The notes beneath the pieces were generated by a model. The model worked only from the letters and a program-made list of their open reading frames with translations, did not search any database and had not been told where the DNA came from. The translations under genes were made by a program, and so were the position numbers. 64,000 nucleotides of DNA. Origin: Anaerolineae bacterium. Lineage in GTDB: Bacteria > Chloroflexota > Anaerolineae > CG2-30-64-16. Location: the NCBI GenBank assembly GCA_040766655.1, contig JAXGQB010000006.1:149562-213561 (forward strand), written 5' to 3'. Below are positions 52,576-64,000 of the stretch, piece after piece; the first letter of the stretch is position 1, and each line of letters opens with the position of its first letter.

Positions 52576-52664
52576 GTAACCGGACAAGAAAAACACCTCG
52601 CAGTCGATAAGAGACCACGAGGTGTCATTGGGTGATTGTGGCGAACCACAACAAAGGTATCAGG

Positions 52665-52736
52665 TGGCGACGCTGAGACTCGAACTCAGGACCCAGCGAT
52701 TATGAGCCGCTTGCTCTGCCTCTGAGCTACGTCGCC
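52665..52736 (-). tRNA. tRNA with CAU anticodon (elongator Met or Ile2; not initiator-like)
   Basis: Folded by hand. Acceptor GGCGACG/CGUCGCC; D-arm GCUC-AGAGGCA-GAGC; anticodon arm AGCGG-CUCAUAA-UCGCU; variable loop GGGUC; T-arm CUGAG-UUCGAGU-CUCAG; discriminator A. G1-C72 is paired and the GGG/CCC anticodon-stem signature is absent, which argues against tRNA-fMet. Confidence 0.85.
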
Positions 52737-53233
52737 TTCTTCTACCACAACATCTAGGGGTCTATCCAATAACCAACACTACAGATTGTGGTCGGCTGTC
52801 CGATATCCAAGACGCCCGTTTGGACGAATCGCTGGGTCATCTCGGCTGACAAACCCCCTGGCCCGCAGTTGCGCGTGGGCCGGCGGTAGTCACGCGCCCC
52901 CTGGCCTCGACGCCTCAACCGGCGAGCCACCAAGCCAGCGGTGTTACCAGCACCGCTGACCTTTTCAATTTGATTATACCCAGAAATCAACGCTCCCGCA
53001 AAACCCTTATCACTGATGCGTGAACCAGGACCCAGTAGGGCCCCATGTGGTAGCGTTCACCTGTGGCAGTGGTCCCGAACACATTCTCGTCGGAAGCATC
53101 ATCGATCATTCGCCCAGCAGCCTCAGCAGCACCGGTCCGAGCTTCAACCTTTCGGCGGACATCGAAGCACAGACGACCCATCACCGTAGCGGATTGCCTG
53201 ACCCAAACCCCTCAGCCCAGTCACCTGTAATCC

Positions 53234-53364
53234 GAGCAATTGCTCGCCAGCTTGGCAAGACGCAAGATCAGCCAACTAGACAAACTTGTCAAGTTGGCAA
53301 ACTATTGTCAAATGTCAGAACATACACATTTAGACTTGACAGCATCGTCCCCCTCTGATATGAT
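53234..53364 (+). promoter_or_regulatory. Operator array plus near-consensus sigma-70 promoter upstream of the RHH gene
   Basis: TTGACA (53336-41), 17 nt, then TATGAT (53359-64). Four TTG(G/T)CAA boxes lie upstream at 53252, 53286, 53294 and 53305. There is also a perfect 12-nt palindrome GAGCAATTGCTC (53234-45). Confidence 0.65.
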
Positions 53365-53424
53365 GTGCTCAATGGCTGCTGAATGAGGGGCTACGGCGCA
53401 GCCAAGAGGAAGTCTAAGGAGGTC

Positions 53425-53715
53425 ATGATGTCTCGAAACATACGGTTGGTCGTTCGACTGGCCAATGACGAGGAATATGCGCTGAGGCGCTTCGCACAGG
53501 AGTCCAAATTGCCACTTGCGACGTTGGTTCGGGCGCTTCTGCTCCGCGAGGCGGAGCGTCATAGTGCCGAACGGGCTGGTGCCGGTCTCGGTGGGCTCGC
53601 GGAGGATGCTGTTCGATCAGGGGACATTTCGGTGTCAGATCACCATCCAATCGCGACGACGAAGCGTTCTCAGCACCACTCTGGCAGTGGGATGGTCGAG
53701 CCTTGGTCTGCGTAA
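53425..53715 (+). CDS. Ribbon-helix-helix (CopG/Arc/MetJ-type) DNA-binding protein
   Basis: ATG lies after TAAGGAGG. IRLVVRLANDEEYALRRFAQESKLPLATLVRALLL is a beta-strand plus two helices, typical of RHH. Confidence 0.7.
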   Translation: MMSRNIRLVVRLANDEEYALRRFAQESKLPLATLVRALLLREAERHSAERAGAGLGGLAEDAVRSGDISVSDHHPIATTKRSQHHSGSGMVEPWSA

Positions 53716-53757
53716 GGCGGTCCGCCTTTGTGACCTTGGGCGTTCAGGGGTAGTGCC

Positions 53758-55173
53758 ATGGCCGGCAGCAAGGCCCTGTACGATCCAGACGCGGAAGAAC
53801 GCCTACTCGCGACTGCGCTTACCGATTTCGCGAATTTCGCGCGCGATGTGCAGCCGGAAGACTTCCACAACAAACTCCATGGGCAAATCTGGGCTGTAGG
53901 GCAAGAACTGATTGACCTGGGAGACTATCCTCAGGGAGTGAACGTGCCCACGGCCGCTAGTATCGGCGATGCACTAGAGCGCCGTGGTGTCGACGTTGGT
54001 TTGCTGATAGCACATCTGCAGGCGCTCGACGTCAACCCTGTCGATGCATCAGTCTTTGCTCGCCAAGTGAGGGACCTCGCGGCGCGGCGGCGGGCCGATA
54101 ATCGGCTTCAAGCAGCACTCCGAGCGACCCATTACTCGAACGGCACATGGCGTGATGAGATCGTGCGCGCCATAGACGGGCTGTCGCAGGACCTGACGCA
54201 GGCGAGTCCACAGGCAGACACCCCGGCCAGCCACATCTCGCTGTTGACGGCAGCGGAGGCCCTTCAACCCAGACCACCGCGCAAGTGGTTGGTCGAGAAG
54301 CTATTCCTGCCTGGCAGCGTCAACGTGATGTTCGCTCCCCCTGGCACGGGCAAAACGTATTGTTTTGCTGACCTGAGTGTTTGTGTAGCCCTCGGCTCAC
54401 CCTGGCTTGGATTGGCGACACAGCAGGGTGCGGTATTGATCATCGACGAGGAATCGGGGACGCGACGCATCCTTGACCGGTTTGCAGAAGCGCTGCGTGG
54501 TCATCTAGCCGACGCATCGACGCCAGTCTACATCGCGTCCCTCGTCGGATTCAACTTCCGTGAAAATGAGTCATTGGCGACCCTGGATGAACTCATCCGG
54601 AAAGTTGGCGCTCGCCTCGTCGTCATTGATGCATTGGCCGATGTAATGTTGGGCGGCGATGAGAACGCTGTCAAAGACACCCAACCCGTCTTTCACGGTT
54701 TGCGCACCGTCGCAGAGGCAACCGGCGCAGCGGTGCTCGTGGTACACCATAGCAACCGGGGGGGCGCTTATCGGGGGTCGTCGGCCATTCCTGGCGCTGT
54801 CGACGTGATGCTCGAACTCACCCGGCGTAACGATTCGCAACTGGTTGACATTGCCACCGTGAAGAATCGCGACGGCGAACCCATCACCTTGTCGGCCATG
54901 ATGCGCTGGAGCGATGGGATATTCGACCTGATACCTGCACCGACCGTCGGGCCACGCGAGACTTTCAGCAAAGCCGAGCGATATGTGCTGCGGTACCTGG
55001 AAGAACACGGTGCAGACACCGTCAAGAACATCATGGACCACGCGGACACATGTGCTTCCACCACGGCGCGACAAGCCATCTATCTGCTGGCCGAGAAGAA
55101 CAAGGTGTGGCGTTGTGATGGCGGCAGCGGCACACAATCAGCAACCTACTGTCTCGTTGGTGATGCCAAATGA
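53758..55173 (+). CDS. Replicative-helicase-like protein: DnaB N-terminal-like domain + RepA/AAA_25 RecA-fold ATPase + C-terminal wHTH
   Basis: The N-terminus DPDAEERLLATALTD......VQPEDFHNKLHGQIW is DnaB-N-like. Walker A is MFAPPGTGKTY, Walker B AVLIIDEE / LVVIDALAD. LVVHHSNRGG is typical of RepA-like ATPases. Confidence 0.8.
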   Translation: MAGSKALYDPDAEERLLATALTDFANFARDVQPEDFHNKLHGQIWAVGQELIDLGDYPQGVNVPTAASIGDALERRGVDVGLLIAHLQALDVNPVDASVFARQVRDLAARRRADNRLQAALRATHYSNGTWRDEIVRAIDGLSQDLTQASPQADTPASHISLLTAAEALQPRPPRKWLVEKLFLPGSVNVMFAPPGTGKTYCFADLSVCVALGSPWLGLATQQGAVLIIDEESGTRRILDRFAEALRGHLADASTPVYIASLVGFNFRENESLATLDELIRKVGARLVVIDALADVMLGGDENAVKDTQPVFHGLRTVAEATGAAVLVVHHSNRGGAYRGSSAIPGAVDVMLELTRRNDSQLVDIATVKNRDGEPITLSAMMRWSDGIFDLIPAPTVGPRETFSKAERYVLRYLEEHGADTVKNIMDHADTCASTTARQAIYLLAEKNKVWRCDGGSGTQSATYCLVGDAK

Positions 55174-55176
55174 GCA

Positions 55177-55266
55177 CTTGTAGTCTTGTAGCACTTGTCA
55201 TGAAACTTGTAGCGATTACAAGTCAGCTTGTAGTACTTGTAATCCCCCCCTTAAGGGGGATTACAA
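55177..55266. repeat. Iteron-like array of CTTGTA(G) heptamers plus a 12-bp-stem hairpin; candidate replication origin
   Basis: CTTGTA(G) occurs at 55177, 55185, 55194 (variant CTTGTC), 55206, 55227 and 55236. One inverted copy (TACAAG) lies at 55217. The hairpin is ttgtaatccccc/gggggattacaa (55238-55266). Confidence 0.7.
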
Positions 55267-55328
55267 CTTCAAGCACGACAACGATCACAAACTGGATGCG
55301 CCATAGGTTCTTTGTTGCGGAGGGTGTC

Positions 55329-55661
55329 ATGGGTTGTGTTGGTCCTTTGGACTGTGCGCTCGAATGGCTGAATGAAGTGGATGAAAATTATGGATCAACG
55401 TCAAATGTGGGCCGGACCGATGAATTGCAGAATCCCTCTTGCGGGACTGACACGGTGGCAGAGAATCCACCACTCATCCTAATCTGGTGGCAGGACCGTG
55501 GGCACGCCGATGAATCCGATTACCACAAGGCGACCTTCGCTTCGCTTGAGGAGGCTGAGCTTGCACTCCAGATGGTTGAGCAGGACATAACGTGCAACGG
55601 GATCATCCCCTGTTGGCGGGAAGGCAGGGCGGACCCGCGGTGGGATTTCCTGCCATTTTAG
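55329..55661 (+). CDS. Hypothetical protein (110 aa)
   Basis: ATG at 55329 lies 5 nt after GGAGGG. The upstream part of track ORF 55170 is translation of the iteron array and was rejected. Confidence 0.5.
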   Translation: MGCVGPLDCALEWLNEVDENYGSTSNVGRTDELQNPSCGTDTVAENPPLILIWWQDRGHADESDYHKATFASLEEAELALQMVEQDITCNGIIPCWREGRADPRWDFLPF

Positions 55662-55694
55662 GCGGGCTGTGCCACAGTTTCGGCGGAGGAGGCA

Positions 55695-55943
55695 ATGACC
55701 ATCAGTCAGCGAACGCAGCGTGTTGTGGTGCTGTCTACCTCTTTGCCCTGCTGCGCGTTCGCCGCCTGGGGCTACTGCGATGAACCGGCAACCGAGGCTC
55801 TGGCGGAACTGCGCGTATTGGCGACAGGGCACGAGTGGATAATGAAGCCCTACTGCCCGAAGCATATGCGCGCGCATGAACCCAAGCGCAAACGCGCGCG
55901 GGCCGCGCGCACACCCGCGGCCCGCGGCACGGCGGGCGGCTGA
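55695..55943 (+). CDS. Small Cys-rich hypothetical protein with basic tail
   Basis: GGAGGAGG precedes the ATG. The tail is KRKRARAAR. Confidence 0.5.
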   Translation: MTISQRTQRVVVLSTSLPCCAFAAWGYCDEPATEALAELRVLATGHEWIMKPYCPKHMRAHEPKRKRARAARTPAARGTAGG

Positions 55944-56097
55944 TCATGCGCAAAGGTGCCGCCGGCTGTCCCTGCTGGACGAGGCGCGGGCTGGCCCTGA
56001 TTGAATGCCCCGTAGGGCTTCGTATCGGAGCACCGGAAACAGCGTTGGGCCAGGGCGCAATCGCTGACGCCCTACCTCACCCTGCCGAGGAATCGCG

Positions 56098-56628
56098 ATG
56101 ACAACTACACGATGCGCCTGGTCCGCCCCCGTCTCCAACTCCGAGGCGTATAGGCGGGCCGGCGGCCGGCGGCGCTACAATGCGATGCGCCGAGCCGCGG
56201 CATTGGTTCGGTCCCTGGAGGCCTTGGCCCTGCACCGTGCTGGTTGCTCCAAGGCCGATATCGCGAGCCGGCTGCTAGTTTCCAGATCAACGGTCCAGTG
56301 CTACTTTCGCCGCTGGACCGGCCCCCGCCAGCGCCTATGCCCGGTCTGCCGGCGGGTGTGGAGCCACGGGCCGGAACCCCTCGCCGCCTCACCTGTGGCA
56401 TGCGATCTGGATCACGGCCAACCGGACGGAGGACCGGCCGCCCGTATTGAGCTCGTGGTGCAACTGCTCCAGGCAGGCCACACTCAGGCCGAGGTCGCTC
56501 GGCGGTTGGGCGTATCGCCGGCGACGACCTGCCGCGACGTTCGCAGGTTATGGAACGAACTGATCGAGACGGGTTGCTGCCCGGTCTGTGGCGCAGCTAT
56601 TGGCGGTGCGGCTGAGCGCGCACGGTGA
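56098..56628 (+). CDS. Protein with two helix-turn-helix modules and CxxC pairs
   Basis: The HTH units are GCSKADIASRLLVSRSTVQCYFRRW and GHTQAEVARRLGVSPATTCRDVRRL. CPVC occurs twice. Confidence 0.6.
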   Translation: MTTTRCAWSAPVSNSEAYRRAGGRRRYNAMRRAAALVRSLEALALHRAGCSKADIASRLLVSRSTVQCYFRRWTGPRQRLCPVCRRVWSHGPEPLAASPVACDLDHGQPDGGPAARIELVVQLLQAGHTQAEVARRLGVSPATTCRDVRRLWNELIETGCCPVCGAAIGGAAERAR

Positions 56629-56787
56629 AACGGGGTGCGGACTTATTCCGCAGTGACCCCATGGGCTCCACTGCTGCACACTGAGCGCGGGAATGAAAAT
56701 GCGTACCTTGACGAGGCGAAGCACGAATCGCCGCTGATTTCCGGAAATCGTCCACGGTGTTTCGCGGCCTCCCACAAACTCGGTGAC

Positions 56788-56816
56788 TTGGCGAACTTAT
56801 CACGGTGTGATAGATT
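56788..56816 (+). promoter_or_regulatory. Candidate promoter with palindromic operator in the spacer
   Basis: TTGGCG (56788-93), 17 nt, then TAGATT (56811-16). The palindrome TATCACGGTGTGATA (56798-56812) overlaps the -10 box. Confidence 0.4.
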
Positions 56817-56923
56817 ACGCCTAGACGCAATCCTCAGTGTTCAGGGCCATGATGGATGGTCCGGCACACATCGGCGAGATCAAGCGCCTACACCGACGCA
56901 TCATCAACAGCATTTGATAGGAG

Positions 56924-58006
56924 ATGAGCACCGTGAGGCAGATATTCCTCTGTGTCCTGATCGTCACCCTGGCTGTGGGTTGTGCGGGCACGCCGACTGC
57001 CCAACCAGCAAATACGCCCGACGGTGCTGCCACGGAGACCGCCATCGCCCGCAACATCTATGCGACGCTGACGGCTGCCCCGACCGCAGCCCCTACCATG
57101 ACGGCTACGACAGCGCCTACGGCAACACAGGTGCCACCAAGGCCGGCTCCCACGGCTTCAGCTACAATGCCGCCGACCCCGACCCCCGAACCCCGGCCGA
57201 CTGACACGCCGACGCCAGAACCTTCACCTACATCGGTTGGTCCGGTAGCTGTGGTGCAGTCGGCATCCATTAACGTGCGGGCCGGCCCTGGCACCGGGCA
57301 CGCGGCCATCACCGCTGGCAGAAAGGGCGATCTACTCCCGGTAACTGGTCGCAACGCTGATGGCTCGTGGCTGGAGATCACTCTGCCCGATGGACGCAGC
57401 GGCTGGATCGCGGCGACTTTGGTCCAACTCAACGTTTCCACCGGCGAGGTGGCAGTGGCGAAGACTATTCCAACCCCACCGGTCGCCCCAACCTCTGCCC
57501 CCGGCGCGATTGCGAAACCCGCGGCCGGCCGGCGCGATCTTGAGGTGACCTTCCTCAACCCGCACTACGATTGCCAACAGACCGAATGGCAGTACACTGG
57601 CGACGACAACGAACACCATCCCCTATGGGGCTATCGGTCGTTTCAGGTTGACATGTACATCAAGAACAATTCCCAGACATCGATTGAGCCACCCTGGAGG
57701 CCGAAGCGCTGGATTATTACGGACGGCCAAAAAGATGTGATGAACGGCCTACGATGGCAATGGGTGAGCAGAAGCAGTGGGTTTTATCCGCAGCCGGCGA
57801 TCCAGCCAGGGCAAAGCGCGGGGTGGACCTTCCTCGCGTTTCCGATAGATCGCAATCAATGGGTCAAGGCGGTCGAGTTCGAGTGGAACGGACAGGTCTA
57901 CCGCCAAGACTTTGACTTGGGGCCATACGGTAACAACCACAACTACAGAGACTGCGGCGACCCTGCGCCGCACACCGACCGCCCTACACCGACGCCTCGG
58001 CCATAG
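56924..58006 (+). CDS. Lipoprotein with bacterial SH3 domain and C-terminal domain of unknown function
   Basis: Lipobox is LAVGCAG, followed by a PT-rich linker. The SH3_3-like segment is ASINVRAGPGTGHAAITAGRKGDLLPVTGRNADGSWLEITLPDGRSGWIA. Confidence 0.7.
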   Translation: MSTVRQIFLCVLIVTLAVGCAGTPTAQPANTPDGAATETAIARNIYATLTAAPTAAPTMTATTAPTATQVPPRPAPTASATMPPTPTPEPRPTDTPTPEPSPTSVGPVAVVQSASINVRAGPGTGHAAITAGRKGDLLPVTGRNADGSWLEITLPDGRSGWIAATLVQLNVSTGEVAVAKTIPTPPVAPTSAPGAIAKPAAGRRDLEVTFLNPHYDCQQTEWQYTGDDNEHHPLWGYRSFQVDMYIKNNSQTSIEPPWRPKRWIITDGQKDVMNGLRWQWVSRSSGFYPQPAIQPGQSAGWTFLAFPIDRNQWVKAVEFEWNGQVYRQDFDLGPYGNNHNYRDCGDPAPHTDRPTPTPRP

Positions 58007-58023
58007 TAGTCAAAGGTACAAAG

Positions 58024-59112
58024 ATGCAAACAGTTTTCAGTCACGTTGTCCAGAAGCGGCTCTCCCAGGAGAACGAGAATGTTGCGACCGAGGCGCTTTC
58101 TTTCGTCCTACAATCGCACGAGCTCGCTCACAACGGAATGATGAAGCTCCTGCGCGGAATCGACCCGCAGATGCCCCGTCTCTGGTTTCGCACCCAGCAG
58201 GCTGAGGGTAAGGGTCGCCCCGACATGCTGGGATGCGATGATGCCGGTGAGCCGCATCTCTTCATCGAGAACAAGTTTTGGGCCGGTTTGACAGAGAACC
58301 AGCCCGTGTCTTACCTTCGCAGACTGGTTGAGTGCCCTATGGCCACCATTCTGCTGGTCATCGGTCCTGAGGCTCGCCAGGAGATGCTGTGGCGCGAATT
58401 CCGCCGCAGACTCGCGGATGATGATATCTCGATCTCAGCAGACTCGATGAGCGGCATCTTTCGCGTCGCGACGACCAGCATCGGCCCGAAGCTCGTGCTG
58501 ACGTCCTGGCGGGTGCTGCTCGATGCCCTGGAGACCGAAGCCACTGATGACAAGGCTGCCAGGAGTGATCTTCTTCAGTTGCAGGCGCTGTGTGCAGCAG
58601 CGGACATCGAAGCGTTTCTCCCGATGTCCGCACAGGAAGCGACGGACCAACGCACGCCTGCCCTGATCCTGCAGTTGAGCAGCGTTGTGCAGGCTGTGGT
58701 TGACCGTGCTGTCAGCCAGGGCATTCTGAATCTCCGGGGAACCGCTCCTCAGGCTTCGGCGGAACGAATCGGTCGCTATGCCTACTTCGGGGCTGAGCGA
58801 CGGGCCGGCCTGTGGTTCGGAATCCACTTCGTGCTTTGGAAGACGCATGGCGTGACACCGCTTTGGATGGTCTTCTCGCCAAGTGAGTTCGGGCGTGCGC
58901 CTGAAGTACAGGCCATCCTCGAACCCTGGGCAGCACAACGGGGAGTCTTTGTGACCCGTTACGGGGACGGTCACTTCGTGGTTGCTCTCGACATCGAGTA
59001 CGGCGAGGACAAAGCTGGAGTCGTCGCAGGTATCGTGGCTCGGCTGGGGGAGATGGCGGTCCGGCTGGCCGTGTTGAAGCCTGGCCCCCAGGGAGAGATA
59101 AACAACGGGTGA
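58024..59112 (+). CDS. PD-(D/E)xK-nuclease-like protein (N-terminal domain) with unknown C-terminal domain
   Basis: ENVATEAL...GRPDMLGCDDAGEPHLFIENKFWA fits the E...PD...(D/E)xK arrangement. Confidence 0.55.
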   Translation: MQTVFSHVVQKRLSQENENVATEALSFVLQSHELAHNGMMKLLRGIDPQMPRLWFRTQQAEGKGRPDMLGCDDAGEPHLFIENKFWAGLTENQPVSYLRRLVECPMATILLVIGPEARQEMLWREFRRRLADDDISISADSMSGIFRVATTSIGPKLVLTSWRVLLDALETEATDDKAARSDLLQLQALCAAADIEAFLPMSAQEATDQRTPALILQLSSVVQAVVDRAVSQGILNLRGTAPQASAERIGRYAYFGAERRAGLWFGIHFVLWKTHGVTPLWMVFSPSEFGRAPEVQAILEPWAAQRGVFVTRYGDGHFVVALDIEYGEDKAGVVAGIVARLGEMAVRLAVLKPGPQGEINNG

Positions 59113-59626
59113 TTCGGCTGCATTCTCCGAAGTCCTGCGCGAGTTCATCACCAGACTGGCAAAGTAGTTGGGCAAGTGTGCTGTTGAGCGGCACGGTGAC
59201 GCATTCCCTTCTCAGCCAGCCTTGGTTCACAAGACAACATACCCTTGCCGGATTGGCCAACGTCGATGGCAACGAGATTTCTGGATCAGGGTGAACAACA
59301 TGTCGAAAATCCTCTTCGGTCTGCTGGAACTGATTCTGCGTCTGTTCGGCTGGAAGCGCCTGGACGTGAAGGACGTCGCGCGCGATCTGGGGATCGCGCG
59401 ACCTCCCACGAAGACCCCGCCAGGGGACCCAGACTAGCGCGTAACCCGCGGTCGTGATGGCGCGTCGCCGGCGCTGCCGCTGAGGTTGGTAATGGCTGCG
59501 CTGGTGGCCGGAGGCGTGACAACCGCCGATCCGCGCAGGGAGTTGGCGAGGTCACGTGTTTGCCCTCTGGGTCAGGGGTATTCCTGGTCAGAGAATTCGC
59601 GAATCGATTGGAGGGAGGACAGCATC

Positions 59627-61165
59627 ATGAAGAACATGGCCCTAGTCCTCGTTGTCGTGTTGATGGTCGCGGGTTGTCGCGGTGCGCCAGCACCAGACAC
59701 GCAGGCGACGGTGGACCGAGCGGTGCAAGCGACACTGACCGCCCGTGCCCCAGACAGCGTGCCTGCGCCGGCCACGGCACCTGCGCCCACCAATACGCCT
59801 GCGCCCTCTGTGGAACCGACAATTGCGCCAACGGCCACAGAACCCCCCGCTTCGCTGACCGATTCATCGAAGGAGGAGGCGCTTGACACTTACAAGTTGC
59901 TGGTCGCCATCCAGGCCGAGGTCAATCTGCTGGATGAGACGGCGCGCCGCGTTGCATCTGGTGAACTGGAGGGCACGGACAGTTTCTCGTCCGTGATGGC
60001 TGTAGCTCTGATAATTCAGGCCGTCGATGAGGGAATCGCCGAATACGCTCCCCCCGCCATAGTGAAGCCCTCCTGGGAGGCCGCGGTATCTATCCATCAG
60101 ACGACCCGCTCTCTAGTCACTAGCTGGTTCAACCAGGAAATCAACGCAGATGCAGTGATCTCAGAAATCGCGTCCCCACTGGCCGACATCGACGCGGTGC
60201 TCTCGGATGTGGACGACCTACTGGAAACCGTCTATGCACTAGATAGGGCCGAACTGGATGGACTTCGCGATGAACTGGTTAGAGGTATGAGGGACATCCT
60301 GAATACACCGACCCCGCCTCCCGACAGCGCAAGCGGCCCTGCGGAGGTGACTAGCGACGTCAGCTACACGGAGGGCGACTACCTCTACATCATCGGCGAG
60401 GTAGAGAACACCAGCAACACCCCCATGGAGTACGTCAAGCTCGTGGCTACGCTGTATGACGACAAGGACAGCGTCGTCGGGACTGAATCGACCTACACCA
60501 TTTTGGACGTGATTCCTCCAGGGGGCAGGTCGCCGTTTGAGATGATGACCAGCGACTGGGACGGCATGACCCGCTACAAGCTCCAGGTGCAGTCCTCTGA
60601 AGGCGACCTGCCGGAAACATTGGTCAGCGTGGTCAGCCACCGGCAGCGCATCGACGGCGATTACTACCACATCGTTGGTGAGGTCAAGAACGAAGGTGGA
60701 GCGCCAGTGGAGTATGTCAAGGTCATCGCCACCTTATACGACGAAGCTGACAAGGTGGTGGGCGTGACCTATTCGTATGCCATATTGGATGCAGTGCCTG
60801 CCGCCGGCAAATCGCCTTTTGAATTGACCACGGACCGCTGGGCAGGCGCGGTTCGCTACGAGATTCAGGCCCAGGCCAGTCCAGGGGAGTTGGGGCGGCA
60901 GGGCATCTCGGTTAAGAGTCACACGTCGAGCAGCAACGGCGACTACGTGTCCATCGTAGGCGAGGTCCAGAACAGCGGCGACACTGATGCGGAGTACGTG
61001 AAGGTGGTAGTCACATTCTATGACGGTGCCGGCGCAGTCGCCGGCGTGGCATATTCGTACACGGCACTGGATACGATTCCGGCCGGCGCAACGTCTCCAT
61101 TCGAGGTTATGACGCGACAGGATTCTAGCTTCGATCACTATGAAGTTCAGGTCCAGGGGCAGTAG
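59627..61165 (+). CDS. Lipoprotein with three tandem FxLYD-type domains
   Basis: ATG at 59627 lies after GGAGGGAGGA. Lipobox is MVAGC. There are three ~95-aa repeats of GDY..I(I/V)GEV.N....(M/V/A)EYVK(L/V)(V/I)(A/V)T(L/F)YD......G.....Y..LD.(I/V)P.G..SPFE. Confidence 0.8.
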   Translation: MKNMALVLVVVLMVAGCRGAPAPDTQATVDRAVQATLTARAPDSVPAPATAPAPTNTPAPSVEPTIAPTATEPPASLTDSSKEEALDTYKLLVAIQAEVNLLDETARRVASGELEGTDSFSSVMAVALIIQAVDEGIAEYAPPAIVKPSWEAAVSIHQTTRSLVTSWFNQEINADAVISEIASPLADIDAVLSDVDDLLETVYALDRAELDGLRDELVRGMRDILNTPTPPPDSASGPAEVTSDVSYTEGDYLYIIGEVENTSNTPMEYVKLVATLYDDKDSVVGTESTYTILDVIPPGGRSPFEMMTSDWDGMTRYKLQVQSSEGDLPETLVSVVSHRQRIDGDYYHIVGEVKNEGGAPVEYVKVIATLYDEADKVVGVTYSYAILDAVPAAGKSPFELTTDRWAGAVRYEIQAQASPGELGRQGISVKSHTSSSNGDYVSIVGEVQNSGDTDAEYVKVVVTFYDGAGAVAGVAYSYTALDTIPAGATSPFEVMTRQDSSFDHYEVQVQGQ

Positions 61166-61212
61166 TCAGGTCCAATGGAAGCGCCGTTGCCCCTTCAATC
61201 ACGGGAGGAACC

Positions 61213-61437
61213 ATGCCACGAGCAACTCATTGTCTCCTGAACGGTGATACCATGAGCGTTGATCTCGCTTTGACCCTGCGCGACCAAGCCCGTTCGCGCG
61301 GGGCACCAAGACCCGATTTCCGCTGTACGCTCTGTGGGGCCGAGGTCCGCCCGCATCGTGACGGCGGCCATACGACTGCGCATTTCGAGCACCTGGCGAG
61401 CAATCCGGAGTGTCCGCTCAGCGACCCGCCGAGATGA
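61213..61437 (+). CDS. Small zinc-finger-like protein (CoiA-N-terminal-like C..C...HFEH...C pattern)
   Basis: GGGAGGA precedes the ATG. The pattern is FRCTLCGAEVRPHRDGGHTTAHFEHLASNPECP. Confidence 0.5.
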   Translation: MPRATHCLLNGDTMSVDLALTLRDQARSRGAPRPDFRCTLCGAEVRPHRDGGHTTAHFEHLASNPECPLSDPPR

Positions 61438-61795
61438 GGATACCAACCGCAGTTGCTCTCGGTGATCAACATCTAGAACGAGCCGATTCGCAACAGGCAA
61501 TGTATGCGCTCGCGGACATTGCCATCCCTATGGTGACGTGCTAAACTTCGCACAATGCCGTGTTTTTACAACCTCCATCGGCGGTCAGGATTTAGCAGGA
61601 CACCACCACTTGCCTTAAGTTGCGAGTCGCACTTCTCGTCAACCACAAGCTAACCGACGTGAAGAAGCAGCGAATGACTCGCGCAGACGAACGCTTAGGG
61701 AACTGCTTCGGCGAGGGTCGGCAGACCGAGTCATTGTTCCTGCGCTCAGATGCAGGGACTACGCGCGACCATTCGTGAGAGGGAGCAGGAAGCTG

Positions 61796-62266
61796 ATGGC
61801 TGAGTACGAAGACTTCGAACGAGACTTCATCTCCCGCACACTACTTATCCTTGACCAATATGACCGCCAGGCAATACCAGAGAAGGAGCGATTTGAAGTC
61901 ACCCTCCTAATCAACTGCCTATTAGGCTTGCTCGTGCTGCCAAAGGAGTTTTGGTTCGACAAGGTTCCGCGGCTTGATCTCAGCACGTTGGCAGGTTGGA
62001 GCTTCGAGCCGAGGTACGTAATCGAGTGGGGAGACAGGCCCAAGACGCTTGCCAAGGAAGATCACGGAACGCTGCGCGAAATCGTCTACCGCATGCGAAA
62101 CGGAGTCGCTCATTTGCAGATCAAGGCTACAGGGGACGGGCACGACATCACGGCTATCGAGTTTGCGGACTGGAATGGTTTTCGAGCCACGCTTCCTGTG
62201 ACGAGTCTGGCGCTCTTTGTGCGGAAGCTCGCAACGGAGATGCTCAAAGCTGTGGGAACCAGATGA
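61796..62266 (+). CDS. HEPN-domain protein (Rx4H motif; resembles the pEK499_p136-type HEPN family)
   Basis: ATG at 61796 lies after GGGAGCAGGA. RMRNGVAH gives R-x4-H. LINCLLGLLVLPKE is a helix typical of that family as I recall it. Confidence 0.6.
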   Translation: MAEYEDFERDFISRTLLILDQYDRQAIPEKERFEVTLLINCLLGLLVLPKEFWFDKVPRLDLSTLAGWSFEPRYVIEWGDRPKTLAKEDHGTLREIVYRMRNGVAHLQIKATGDGHDITAIEFADWNGFRATLPVTSLALFVRKLATEMLKAVGTR

Positions 62267-63183
62267 TTCGAGCGTTTGACGAGGTAGTGAATTCTACGCC
62301 GGAGTCGCTATGGAAGTGGATTCACAGTGCGATGGCGGAGTATCCCGATCCACTTGTGGTTGAAAACGGCCCCAAGGAGATGTCGCTGCTCTTTCTCGGA
62401 GGACGTGACGTGCCCCCTGATGAGGAAGGCTCGCTGCATCTCTGTTACGAAGTGTTTGGAACCCTGCTCCATGTCTGGGAACGAGACCCGAAGAAGCCAG
62501 ACAAGGTCGTGGAGCGGCAATACCCAGGTGGCACCGAGATACTCACGTATCCTTCAAATATGGCTCAGGACGAAGGGTTGACGGTTGCGTGGTTTGAATT
62601 TCGGGAACTCTCACCAACGCGAGTACAGGTTATCTGCGATTACGTTGACTATCCTGGCTTGCTTGATCGTCTAAATCAGGTGCGGGCTAAGATGGTCGAG
62701 CTAATGAGTGACCAAGCACCGCCGAGGCTAGATGCCACACAGGAAATCCTGCAATTCAGGTCACTCGTCGAAAGGCAGTTGCACCGCGATATCTTCGTTG
62801 CGGGTCAGCCGCAGGAAAGTATCGCGCGGGGGCTTTTGCAGGCGTTCCTGCGAAGCCGTAGCTATCGCGAGGTTGAGGTCCGCGGGGGCCAGTCGGACCT
62901 TCTTGTTTTCACTCGCGAGCAACGATACTTATACGAGACCAAGATTTGGCGCGGCGAGGACTATTACCGACAGGGACTGAGGGAAATTGAGGAGTACATT
63001 ATCGGCGAAGACGACGATGGCGCTCTCCCGTCTGTGTTTTACATTGTGTTCGACCCCACAACAACGCGACGCGCGGAGGCAATCATCGGGAGTGCAGTTG
63101 AAGTCAGTGAGATTGCAGGCAGACCAGTTACGAGCGTTGTCGTGCACATCCGACCGCCACGTCCCAGTAAGAAGATTGCATGA
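62263..63183 (+). CDS. Protein with C-terminal PD-(D/E)xK nuclease-like core
   Basis: An ATGA start/stop overlap links it to the HEPN gene. ESIARGLLQAFL...GGQSDLLVF...YLYETKIW fits E...D...ExK. The track start at 61996 lies inside the HEPN gene and was rejected. Confidence 0.6.
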   Translation: MIRAFDEVVNSTPESLWKWIHSAMAEYPDPLVVENGPKEMSLLFLGGRDVPPDEEGSLHLCYEVFGTLLHVWERDPKKPDKVVERQYPGGTEILTYPSNMAQDEGLTVAWFEFRELSPTRVQVICDYVDYPGLLDRLNQVRAKMVELMSDQAPPRLDATQEILQFRSLVERQLHRDIFVAGQPQESIARGLLQAFLRSRSYREVEVRGGQSDLLVFTREQRYLYETKIWRGEDYYRQGLREIEEYIIGEDDDGALPSVFYIVFDPTTTRRAEAIIGSAVEVSEIAGRPVTSVVVHIRPPRPSKKIA

Positions 63184-63386
63184 AGACTGGCTAGCTTGGT
63201 GGAAGCGACGTCGCGTGTTCTTGTCACCCGACCTTCCCATCTAGGTTCTGGCAACTGCGGAACCGGTGAAAGTGAAAGATCGTGATTGACGATAGTCCGA
63301 CTACGAGATGGGTAACACACAAACCCACGATGGCCCCCAAACCAACGTACTTCGGACACTCCACGCGCTGCTGAGGAGGTTTTACC

Positions 63387-64000
63387 TTGAGCATTACCCC
63401 CGATCCAATCACATGCAGGAAACTCGTCCTGGTAAAGCTGCTATATCAGAACGCGCTGCTTCAGGCGACCTCGCAAAACATGGCGCAGAAGATGTTCGCG
63501 GTCATCGGGTTTGACCTAACAAGTGAGACGGCTGTGAAGGCACTGATTGGCGCGCTGGAAACGCAAAAGCCTCCGGAATATAAATTCGGGGACCTTATGA
63601 AGCAGGCCGATTCACTGCTTCGCGAAAAGGGAATGCCACCTGTCCCTGATCAGGCTTGCGTACTGCATGTGCATTCGCTACGAAATGACGCTCAGCACAA
63701 GGGCAAGTACCCCAGTGGCACCGATGTTAGCGACTGCCGGACCTACACCAGAGACTTTCTTGCGAAGCTATATCAGAATGTATGGAGCATCGACTTCGAA
63801 AAGGTCAGCCTGAGCGACCTTATTGAGAATGTGGGCGCGCGTAGATTTGTTCATGCTGCTGAATCTGCGCTAACCGATCATGACTTCGAAAAGGCGCTCA
63901 TATTCGCTGTATCCGGTCTCTACTACGCGTTGGATAGAGTATCCGATGCGGTCTACACCCGCAGTGATACTGTCGAGCTTCGCAGTTTCGACGCGGCCGC
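63387..64000 (+). CDS. Second HEPN-motif protein, 3' end off-window (not in the ORF track)
   Basis: TTG at 63387 lies 8 nt after GAGGAGG and is preceded by an in-frame TGA at 63372. The frame stays open to nt 64000 by hand translation. VHSLRNDAQHKG gives R-x4-H. Confidence 0.55.
   Translation, partial: MSITPDPITCRKLVLVKLLYQNALLQATSQNMAQKMFAVIGFDLTSETAVKALIGALETQKPPEYKFGDLMKQADSLLREKGMPPVPDQACVLHVHSLRNDAQHKGKYPSGTDVSDCRTYTRDFLAKLYQNVWSIDFEKVSLSDLIENVGARRFVHAAESALTDHDFEKALIFAVSGLYYALDRVSDAVYTRSDTVELRSFDAA

Follow-up and report, generated by a model that had tools for sequence, protein, structure and literature searches.

The HEPN pEK499_p136 family has been described in operons with restriction-modification (R-M) genes, ART and Macro genes, NamA-like nucleases and Pgl components (Anantharaman et al., 2013, PMC3710099), and single HEPN proteins are known to act as abortive-infection tRNA nucleases (PMC13043305). 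A gene of this family lies next to two further putative nuclease genes in a 64,000-nucleotide (nt) stretch of an Anaerolineae bacterium genome (GenBank assembly GCA_040766655.1, contig JAXGQB010000006.1, positions 149,562 to 213,561), which is called the window in the following. The three open reading frames (ORFs), here named ORF A, ORF B and ORF C, follow each other on the plus strand at the very end of the window. An initial annotation, made from the letters of the window, had read them as a HEPN/PD-(D/E)xK/HEPN string forming a plausible defence or addiction module. The analysis presented here retains the protein assignments, but not the module. At a probability of roughly 0.6, the locus represents a stack of independently acquired nuclease effectors within a defence island, in which ORF A and ORF B form a lineage-specific operon.

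ORF A (61796..62266) extends from an ATG at 61796 to a TGA ending at 62266 and encodes 156 amino acids (aa). Its N-terminus, MAEYEDFERDF, agrees with the family consensus MEYxxFERDF, which favors the ATG at 61796 over the GTG at 61775 as the start codon. A purine-rich stretch in front of it (AGGGAGCAGGAAG, 61780..61792, plus strand) is likely the ribosome-binding site. The product was matched by the Pfam family PF18736 with an E-value of 1.3e-28 and 100.1 bits, compared to a gathering cut-off of 26.6, and the match spans residues 1–154 of ORF A and positions 1–150 of the 152 profile positions. Its Rx4H motif RNGVAH covers R101 to H106 (nt 62096-62113), and neither R101 nor H106 varies among the 44 homologues that were aligned. 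A fair share of proteins as long as this one would contain a bare Rx4H motif by chance alone. The motifs of ORF A and, as described below, of ORF C nevertheless go beyond chance, as they are invariant across their families and as ORF A in addition scores above the curated Pfam threshold. The initial description of ORF A as a 156-aa HEPN protein is thereby borne out, and by its sequence ORF A is a member of the known HEPN pEK499_p136 family and a predicted RNase. No PADLOC-DB v2 hidden Markov model (HMM) matched ORF A, and no informative sequence-level relatives were found in the PDB.

The relatives of ORF A occur in quite different surroundings. The closest homologue (55% identity) is a solo gene beside metabolic genes, and a homologue with 48% identity has a PLD-SNF2 helicase on one side and, on the other, a 1588-aa MmeI/Eco57I-type enzyme that combines methyltransferase and restriction endonuclease. 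The family is common on enterobacterial conjugative plasmids (725 records, ~36% identity), and ORF A was absent from the annotated phage collection and from IMG/VR. On IncF/IncR plasmids, a conserved gene of 255–260 aa begins 12 nt downstream of the pEK499_p136 HEPN gene and encodes a hypothetical protein with the motif WFHGTR (L077 4001-5293; L078 4001-5278). DUF4238 and DUF3800 genes were found near this pair on enterobacterial plasmids. The two plasmid genes look like an uncharacterised two-gene unit that is present on hundreds of clinical plasmids. A relationship between ORF B and the 255–260 aa plasmid protein was considered and rejected (hhalign probability 0.2).

ORF B extends from an ATG at 62263 to 63183 (306 aa), and its start codon overlaps the stop codon of ORF A in an ATGA (62263..62266, plus strand). 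The overlap, which had been noted initially, is present in the sequence, and the same ORF B start was placed by gene callers on three other contigs. As far as can be read from the nucleotides, this is consistent with translational coupling of ORF A and ORF B in one operon. The C-terminal domain of ORF B (aa ~160–306; 62740..63183, plus strand) was modelled by AlphaFold2 (AF2) with a predicted local distance difference test score (pLDDT) of 88–98 and exhibits the core of a PD-(D/E)xK (NERD-like) nuclease. In this model, helix 185–195, strands 200–204, 212–216 and 221–228, helix 232–249 and strand 257–264 follow each other in an alpha-beta-beta-beta-alpha-beta order. The motifs GQSDLLVF and YETKIW are both present, with D212 (nt 62896-98) at the beginning of strand 2, E225 (62935-37) and K227 (62941-43) within strand 3 as E225-T-K227, and E185 as the acidic residue of helix 1. 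E185, E225 and K227 do not vary among 56 sequences, at least 90% of which also retain D212 and E203.

Comparisons of fold and sequence point in the same direction. A Foldseek search with the full ORF B model, including its poorly modelled N-terminus, yielded a top list of PDB entries consisting mostly of PD-(D/E)xK nucleases at E-values of 0.05–0.7 and low template modelling (TM) scores, the weak values being attributed to that N-terminus. These matches included R.BspD6I, DdmD, EndoMS, BamHI, SfsA, Can2, Avs4 and bunyaviral cap-snatching endonucleases. The NERD profile (PF08378) matched ORF B below threshold, with 12.4 bits versus a gathering cut-off of 22.1 (E=0.23). Sub-threshold NERD matches were also obtained for 43 of the 56 family members (E<=1; best 6e-4), and remote members match NERD or Mrr_cat. 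ORF B had no significant match in Pfam, NCBIfam or PADLOC-DB v2, and the PDB contained no informative relatives at the sequence level. Taken together, the AF2 topology, the invariant E225 and K227, the conservation of D212, the predominance of PD-(D/E)xK enzymes among the fold matches and the sub-threshold NERD scores support the initial view of the C-terminus as a PD-(D/E)xK nuclease domain, with the activity being a prediction from sequence and model.

The N-terminal region of ORF B (aa 1–159; 62263..62739, plus strand) is of a different kind. It is beta-rich, was modelled with low confidence (pLDDT 32–70), is not conserved in homologues and is specific to this lineage, and it may be regarded as a putative sensor or adaptor region. 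About 50 proteins possess the C-terminal ~150 residues of ORF B at 50–60% identity together with quite different N-termini, among them TPR, AAA_35/AAA_16 (STAND-type) ATPase, AbiTii and others, and a few of these relatives match the PADLOC models AbiTii or PDC-S26/PDC-S54. Such interchangeable N-termini are the pattern expected of an effector domain joined to swappable sensors. The family is small, as an exhaustive profile search recovered only 297 clusters at 50% identity among 1.84 billion representatives, and its taxonomic spread is sporadic. Neither the plasmid collection nor IMG/VR contained ORF B; the annotated phage collection was not searched for it. Homology between ORF B and a 425-aa gene downstream of ORF C was considered and rejected, as neither hhalign nor BLASTP returned anything.

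The reading frame of ORF B differs between database records. The window has its counterpart in the NCBI contig JAXGSZ010000008.1 of a metagenome-assembled genome (GCA_040775185.1), and window positions 52710-64000 are 100% identical to three independent Logan assemblies. JAXGSZ010000008.1 lacks 2 nt (window 63069-63070), which leads to a frameshift that cuts the ORF B product to 278 aa. The frame of the window is taken as correct, as the alignment with homologues reaches the last residues of the 306-aa form, whose PPxPSKK tail they share. Compared to the window, JAXGSZ010000008.1 also exhibits a total of ~420 mismatches and indels over window 55.5–59.5 kb (55500-59500). This record appears to be either locally error-ridden or a strain variant.

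ORF C (63387..64000, plus strand, the first 204 of 276 codons) starts with a TTG at 63387, which is preceded, at a distance of 7 nt, by a GAGGAGG Shine-Dalgarno sequence (63373..63379, plus strand), and is still open at base 64000. As the tool that produced the ORF track omits ORFs running off the sequence, ORF C is missing from that track. These observations confirm what the initial annotation had stated on start, ribosome-binding site and missing stop codon. The extension of the contig proposed there recovered the complete 276-aa ORF C and its downstream genes from other contigs (L001 11123-11953; identical to the protein P0057), and the gene would end at the window-equivalent position 64217. 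The start fits the N-termini of homologues (MxIxxDxIT). The motif LRNDAQH includes R99 to H104 (nt 63681-63698). Across 67 homologues, R99, N100, A102, Q103 and H104 never vary, and D101 is conserved in at least 90%.

The AF2 model of ORF C (pLDDT 90.4) is all-helical apart from one hairpin. Its N-terminal ~130 aa were matched by Foldseek to HEPN toxins, the sacsin HEPN domain and the PDB entry 2q00 with probabilities of 0.90–0.98, TM scores on the target of 0.55–0.68 and E-values of 0.2–1.6. The top PDB match was HepS, and HEPN-MNT toxins were matched as well. Among 67 relatives, sub-threshold Pfam matches were found to HEPN (seven), DUF4145 (three) and HepT (one), all with an E-value of at least 0.013 and all belonging to the HEPN clan. 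ORF C itself (P0057) had no match among the curated HEPN families of Pfam or NCBIfam, none in PADLOC-DB v2 and none by profile in the PDB, and a fold search of its model against BFVD returned nothing informative. The conserved RNDAQH and the structural matches to HEPN toxins and HepS support the initial view of ORF C as a second HEPN protein, for which an RNase activity is predicted from sequence and model. The ORF C family comprises at least 186 proteins of ~300 aa, all of them unannotated. A common origin of the ORF C and ORF A families was rejected, as hhalign detected no profile relation between them.

Homologues of ORF C occur as solo genes, with DDE transposases next to them in two independent cases and with toxin-antitoxin (TA) genes around one, the latter in Anabaena, where the homologue is surrounded by PIN, DUF433 and UPF0175 genes. 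The two transposases are DDE_Tnp_1 genes that are oriented divergently from the ORF C homologue at unrelated loci (L021/L022 4643-5836; L071/L072 3083-3913). This hints that the ORF C family may travel as cargo of insertion sequences (IS) or transposons. Furthermore, the loci L021–L023 contain a 69-aa Cys/His-rich ORF ~640 nt 3′ of the ORF C homologue. A conserved partner of ORF C could not be detected: no relative of the 425-aa downstream gene was present beside its homologues, whose neighbors were transposases, TA genes and unrelated ORFs. ORF C was also absent from the plasmid collection and IMG/VR; the annotated phage collection was not searched for it.

The finding that carries the preferred reading is that the three families are not inherited together. 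For ORF B, 57 loci were collected, comprising 9 from species-representative genomes, 44 from metagenomes and in addition long contigs, with a few representing the same contig twice; ORF C contributed seven loci from four homologues and ORF A three loci. Family HMMs were run on six-frame ORFs of the 70 loci that had been fetched up to then. No two of the families co-occurred in any of the 57 ORF B, seven ORF C and three ORF A loci outside this organism, and all three together were found only on contigs of this same organism. None of the 25 strong ORF B loci (of 31) with at least 600 nt of upstream sequence showed an ORF A-type HEPN gene there. Likewise, Pfam detected no HEPN domain in ten immediate neighbors of ORF B homologues (nine upstream, one downstream), where HicB, GT87 and PLD were seen instead. 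Clustering of all neighbors revealed no recurrent neighbor family of ORF B. A conserved three-gene module was therefore rejected on the HMM scans of the 70 loci and on the lack of a shared partner in neighbor clustering, and the co-inherited HEPN/DNase/HEPN unit envisaged initially is not supported. Phage or plasmid origin was likewise rejected for ORF B and ORF C on their absence from the plasmid collection and IMG/VR; viral contigs yielded no member of the three families, and plasmids only members of the ORF A family.

These data also bear on whether ORF A and ORF B could constitute a genuine two-component abortive-infection system of this lineage, in which a HEPN RNase and a PD-(D/E)xK DNase act together and the orphan N-terminal domain of ORF B would, for example, bind or regulate the HEPN dimer. 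Such a partnership would fit with the ATGA coupling and with the N-terminal 150 aa of ORF B being unique to the lineage, where relatives use other N-terminal domains. It is also reminiscent of the plasmids, on which the same HEPN family tightly precedes a different conserved gene, and of the published links between this family and NamA nucleases or ART enzymes (PMC3710099). However, the pair was not seen in other organisms in 57 ORF B and three ORF A loci, both families stand as solo genes elsewhere, and no evidence of an interaction came to light, so that we consider this system unlikely. The same holds for a broader version of the idea, in which the pEK499_p136 HEPN gene is a general front gene coupled to interchangeable second effectors and ORF A–ORF B a true dual RNase/DNase abortive-infection system, an idea that we put forward as a tentative one. 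The second enzymes may then be an ART-like or unknown 255-aa protein on IncF/IncR plasmids, NamA elsewhere and a previously undescribed PD-(D/E)xK family here, and the N-terminal domain of ORF B may dock onto the HEPN dimer or be gated by it.

HEPN proteins are common toxins of TA systems (PMC3710099), and a compact pair of coupled genes on a mobile island could also be imagined to be an addiction module, with ORF A–ORF B or all three genes stabilising the island and one protein neutralising the other. The TA genes around the Anabaena homologue of ORF C would be in line with this. Yet ORF A, ORF B and ORF C contain no MNT, helix-turn-helix (HTH) or other antitoxin-type domain, and Pfam detected no NTase (MNT) domain in any neighbor from window position 56098 to the contig end. 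In addition, the catalytic motifs of both ORF A and ORF B are intact, and each family occurs without the other, which implies that neither depends on the other for neutralisation. The addiction reading offered in the initial annotation consequently appears improbable, with no antitoxin-like partner at hand and each family found solo.

The genomic setting is typical of a mobile low-G+C defence island beside a tRNA gene, with the three genes in its inner part. From ~49 kb onward, i.e., over the last ~15 kb of the window, the G+C content falls from ~0.67 to 0.54–0.62, in agreement with the initial description of a low-G+C island. Longer contigs showed that the island continues for at least 3.4 kb past the window end, so that placing the genes at the island edge was inaccurate. 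A tRNA-Met gene (52663-52736, minus strand) adjoins the island. An assembly break falls within this tRNA-Met gene, where the short-read contig L075 begins at 52710, which suggests integration at this site or a polymorphism in the population. Searches of the contig tails for tRNA-derived direct repeats (att sites) found none, and no integrase was seen in the parts of the island examined. Apart from the tRNA-Met gene, the upstream genes include an AAA_25 protein, an HTH protein and several unannotated genes. Promoter, terminator, repeat and Rfam scans of 61–64 kb returned nothing above chance.

Past ORF C the gene order is a 425-aa protein, an Mrr type IV enzyme and a short ORF cut by the contig end. 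The Mrr_N/Mrr_cat type IV restriction enzyme lies ~2 kb past the window end (L001 13875-14792; PADLOC mREase_IV, 3e-86) and lends support to the defence-island setting proposed initially. In a noisy sister assembly the Mrr gene is followed by IS21 (IstB) fragments (L002 13317-13703), which probably cause the breaks of several assemblies at this point. This restriction context raises the question whether ORF A is an accessory RNase arm of neighboring restriction systems (Mrr type IV and beyond), with ORF B and ORF C as unrelated passengers. Such a role was proposed by Anantharaman et al. for HEPN genes in R-M loci, the family itself is documented in R-M/Pgl operons (PMC3710099), and the 48%-identical homologue between the SNF2-PLD helicase and the 1588-aa enzyme as well as the proximity of Mrr would be in favor of it. 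However, three genes separate ORF A from Mrr, ORF A is coupled to ORF B rather than to an R-M gene, and the closest homologue stands alone beside metabolic genes. An accessory restriction role of ORF A hence has little to recommend it at this locus.

Roles outside of genetic conflict, such as RNA processing or DNA repair, or an interpretation of the genes as decaying remnants, appear even less probable. The lack of any PADLOC match and the one ORF B homologue that adjoins ordinary regulatory genes might be taken to speak for such roles. They are, however, difficult to reconcile with the patchy, rare and taxonomically sporadic distribution, with restriction genes and IS elements as neighbors in a low-G+C island, and with the intact reading frames and catalytic residues.

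A few further ORFs of the island deserve mention in their own right. The 425-aa gene 3′ of ORF C (L004 11078-12355) carries LPDAWIYGPGFAVLIESKV, which resembles a PD-ExK motif. Its only Pfam match was a weak one to DUF1054 (E=8.5e-4), and no informative sequence-level relatives were found in the PDB. If this gene were a nuclease, the island would read HEPN, PD-ExK, HEPN, PD-ExK, Mrr. Upstream of the three genes, a 362-aa ORF without Pfam match (58024-59112, plus strand) contains PDMLGCDDAGEPHLFIENKFW, a possible PD-(D/E)xK signature. A 74-aa Cys/His-rich ORF (61213-61437, plus strand) is located 358 nt 5′ of ORF A and gave sub-threshold matches to DUF7830, DUF7828 and the CoiA_N zinc ribbon (best E=4.9e-5, under the cut-off).

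According to the preferred reading, the island would have accumulated a number of nuclease effectors, each encoded by a single, independently mobile gene and acting by abortive infection or restriction. In analogy with characterised HEPN defence proteins, ORF A would act as a dimer whose composite Rx4H active site cuts, upon a trigger, RNA of the cell or of a phage (tRNA, rRNA or mRNA). ORF B would be a DNase-type PD-(D/E)xK effector with a swappable N-terminal region, represented here by the lineage-specific domain. In ORF C, the N-terminal domain would be the catalytic HEPN domain and the C-terminal helical domain presumably regulatory or sensing. HepS, Tha and PrrC-type enzymes offer an analogy in which both ORF A and ORF C could be HEPN RNases that cut tRNA or other RNA upon a trigger. 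ORF A and ORF B would be co-transcribed and translationally coupled in this lineage only, with ORF C as a separate cistron. By analogy, the arrangement of ORF A and ORF B fits the habit of pEK499_p136 HEPN genes to stand before variable second enzymes or inside R-M loci.

Several points weigh against this reading. The ATGA overlap argues for a joint expression of ORF A and ORF B, which would be unusual for unrelated cassettes, and a partnership in this lineage is therefore possible. With Foldseek E-values above 0.01 for the models of both ORF B and ORF C, the fold calls combine convergent weak evidence with motif conservation rather than following from a single decisive match. Many of the metagenomic loci are short, and the absence of partners holds within the available flanks. 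With PADLOC matching none of the three proteins and only the neighboring Mrr, their defence role is read from context, and their activities are predicted ones.

ORF B and ORF C belong to unannotated families inside well-known superfamilies, and the three-gene arrangement is a local juxtaposition. Both families are small and have no model in Pfam, NCBIfam or PADLOC; giving them names would make defence islands easier to annotate, above all those of Chloroflexota-like and other environmental lineages. As candidates for single-gene abortive infection, both are reasonable and would be fair choices for defence screens. That a tempting three-gene "system" turns out to be a juxtaposition is a caution for defence discovery by guilt-by-association. 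No new mechanism is revealed and no open question answered by this locus, and its composition will not surprise a specialist.

Compared to described systems, ORF A resembles the HEPN pEK499_p136 family (PF18736) in its end-to-end profile match, its invariant Rx4H motif and a neighborhood rich in defence and R-M genes. As on the IncF/IncR plasmids, it precedes a gene for a second enzyme. Unlike the plasmid genes, to which ORF A has ~36% identity, its partner is a PD-(D/E)xK protein that is unrelated to the 255–260 aa partner and also to the reported NamA and ART partners of the family. ORF B shares its core fold and conserved catalytic residues with NERD/Mrr-type nucleases (PF08378, PF04471), which act as effectors in Avs4, DdmD and Can2. 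In its relatives the PD-(D/E)xK domain follows a TPR, STAND-ATPase or AbiTii N-terminus, a pattern of fusions also seen in defence effectors. In contrast to the NERD/Mrr-type enzymes, ORF B stays below every Pfam, NCBIfam and PADLOC threshold, with Foldseek E-values of 0.05 or worse, and its small family possesses a C-terminal PPxPSKK tail and ERQ...RSYREV motifs of its own. ORF C differs from HEPN-MNT systems (HepT/MntA) in having no MNT partner, and from HepS, Tha and HepT in the absence of detectable sequence similarity and in an extra C-terminal helical domain of ~140 aa. Nevertheless, ORF C comes close to the single-protein HEPN nucleases HepS of Gifsy-1 (PMC13043305) and Tha (PMC11087260) and to the HepT toxins: it stands alone, its first ~130 aa can be superposed on HEPN toxins, and its R-N-x-x-x-H motif is invariant.

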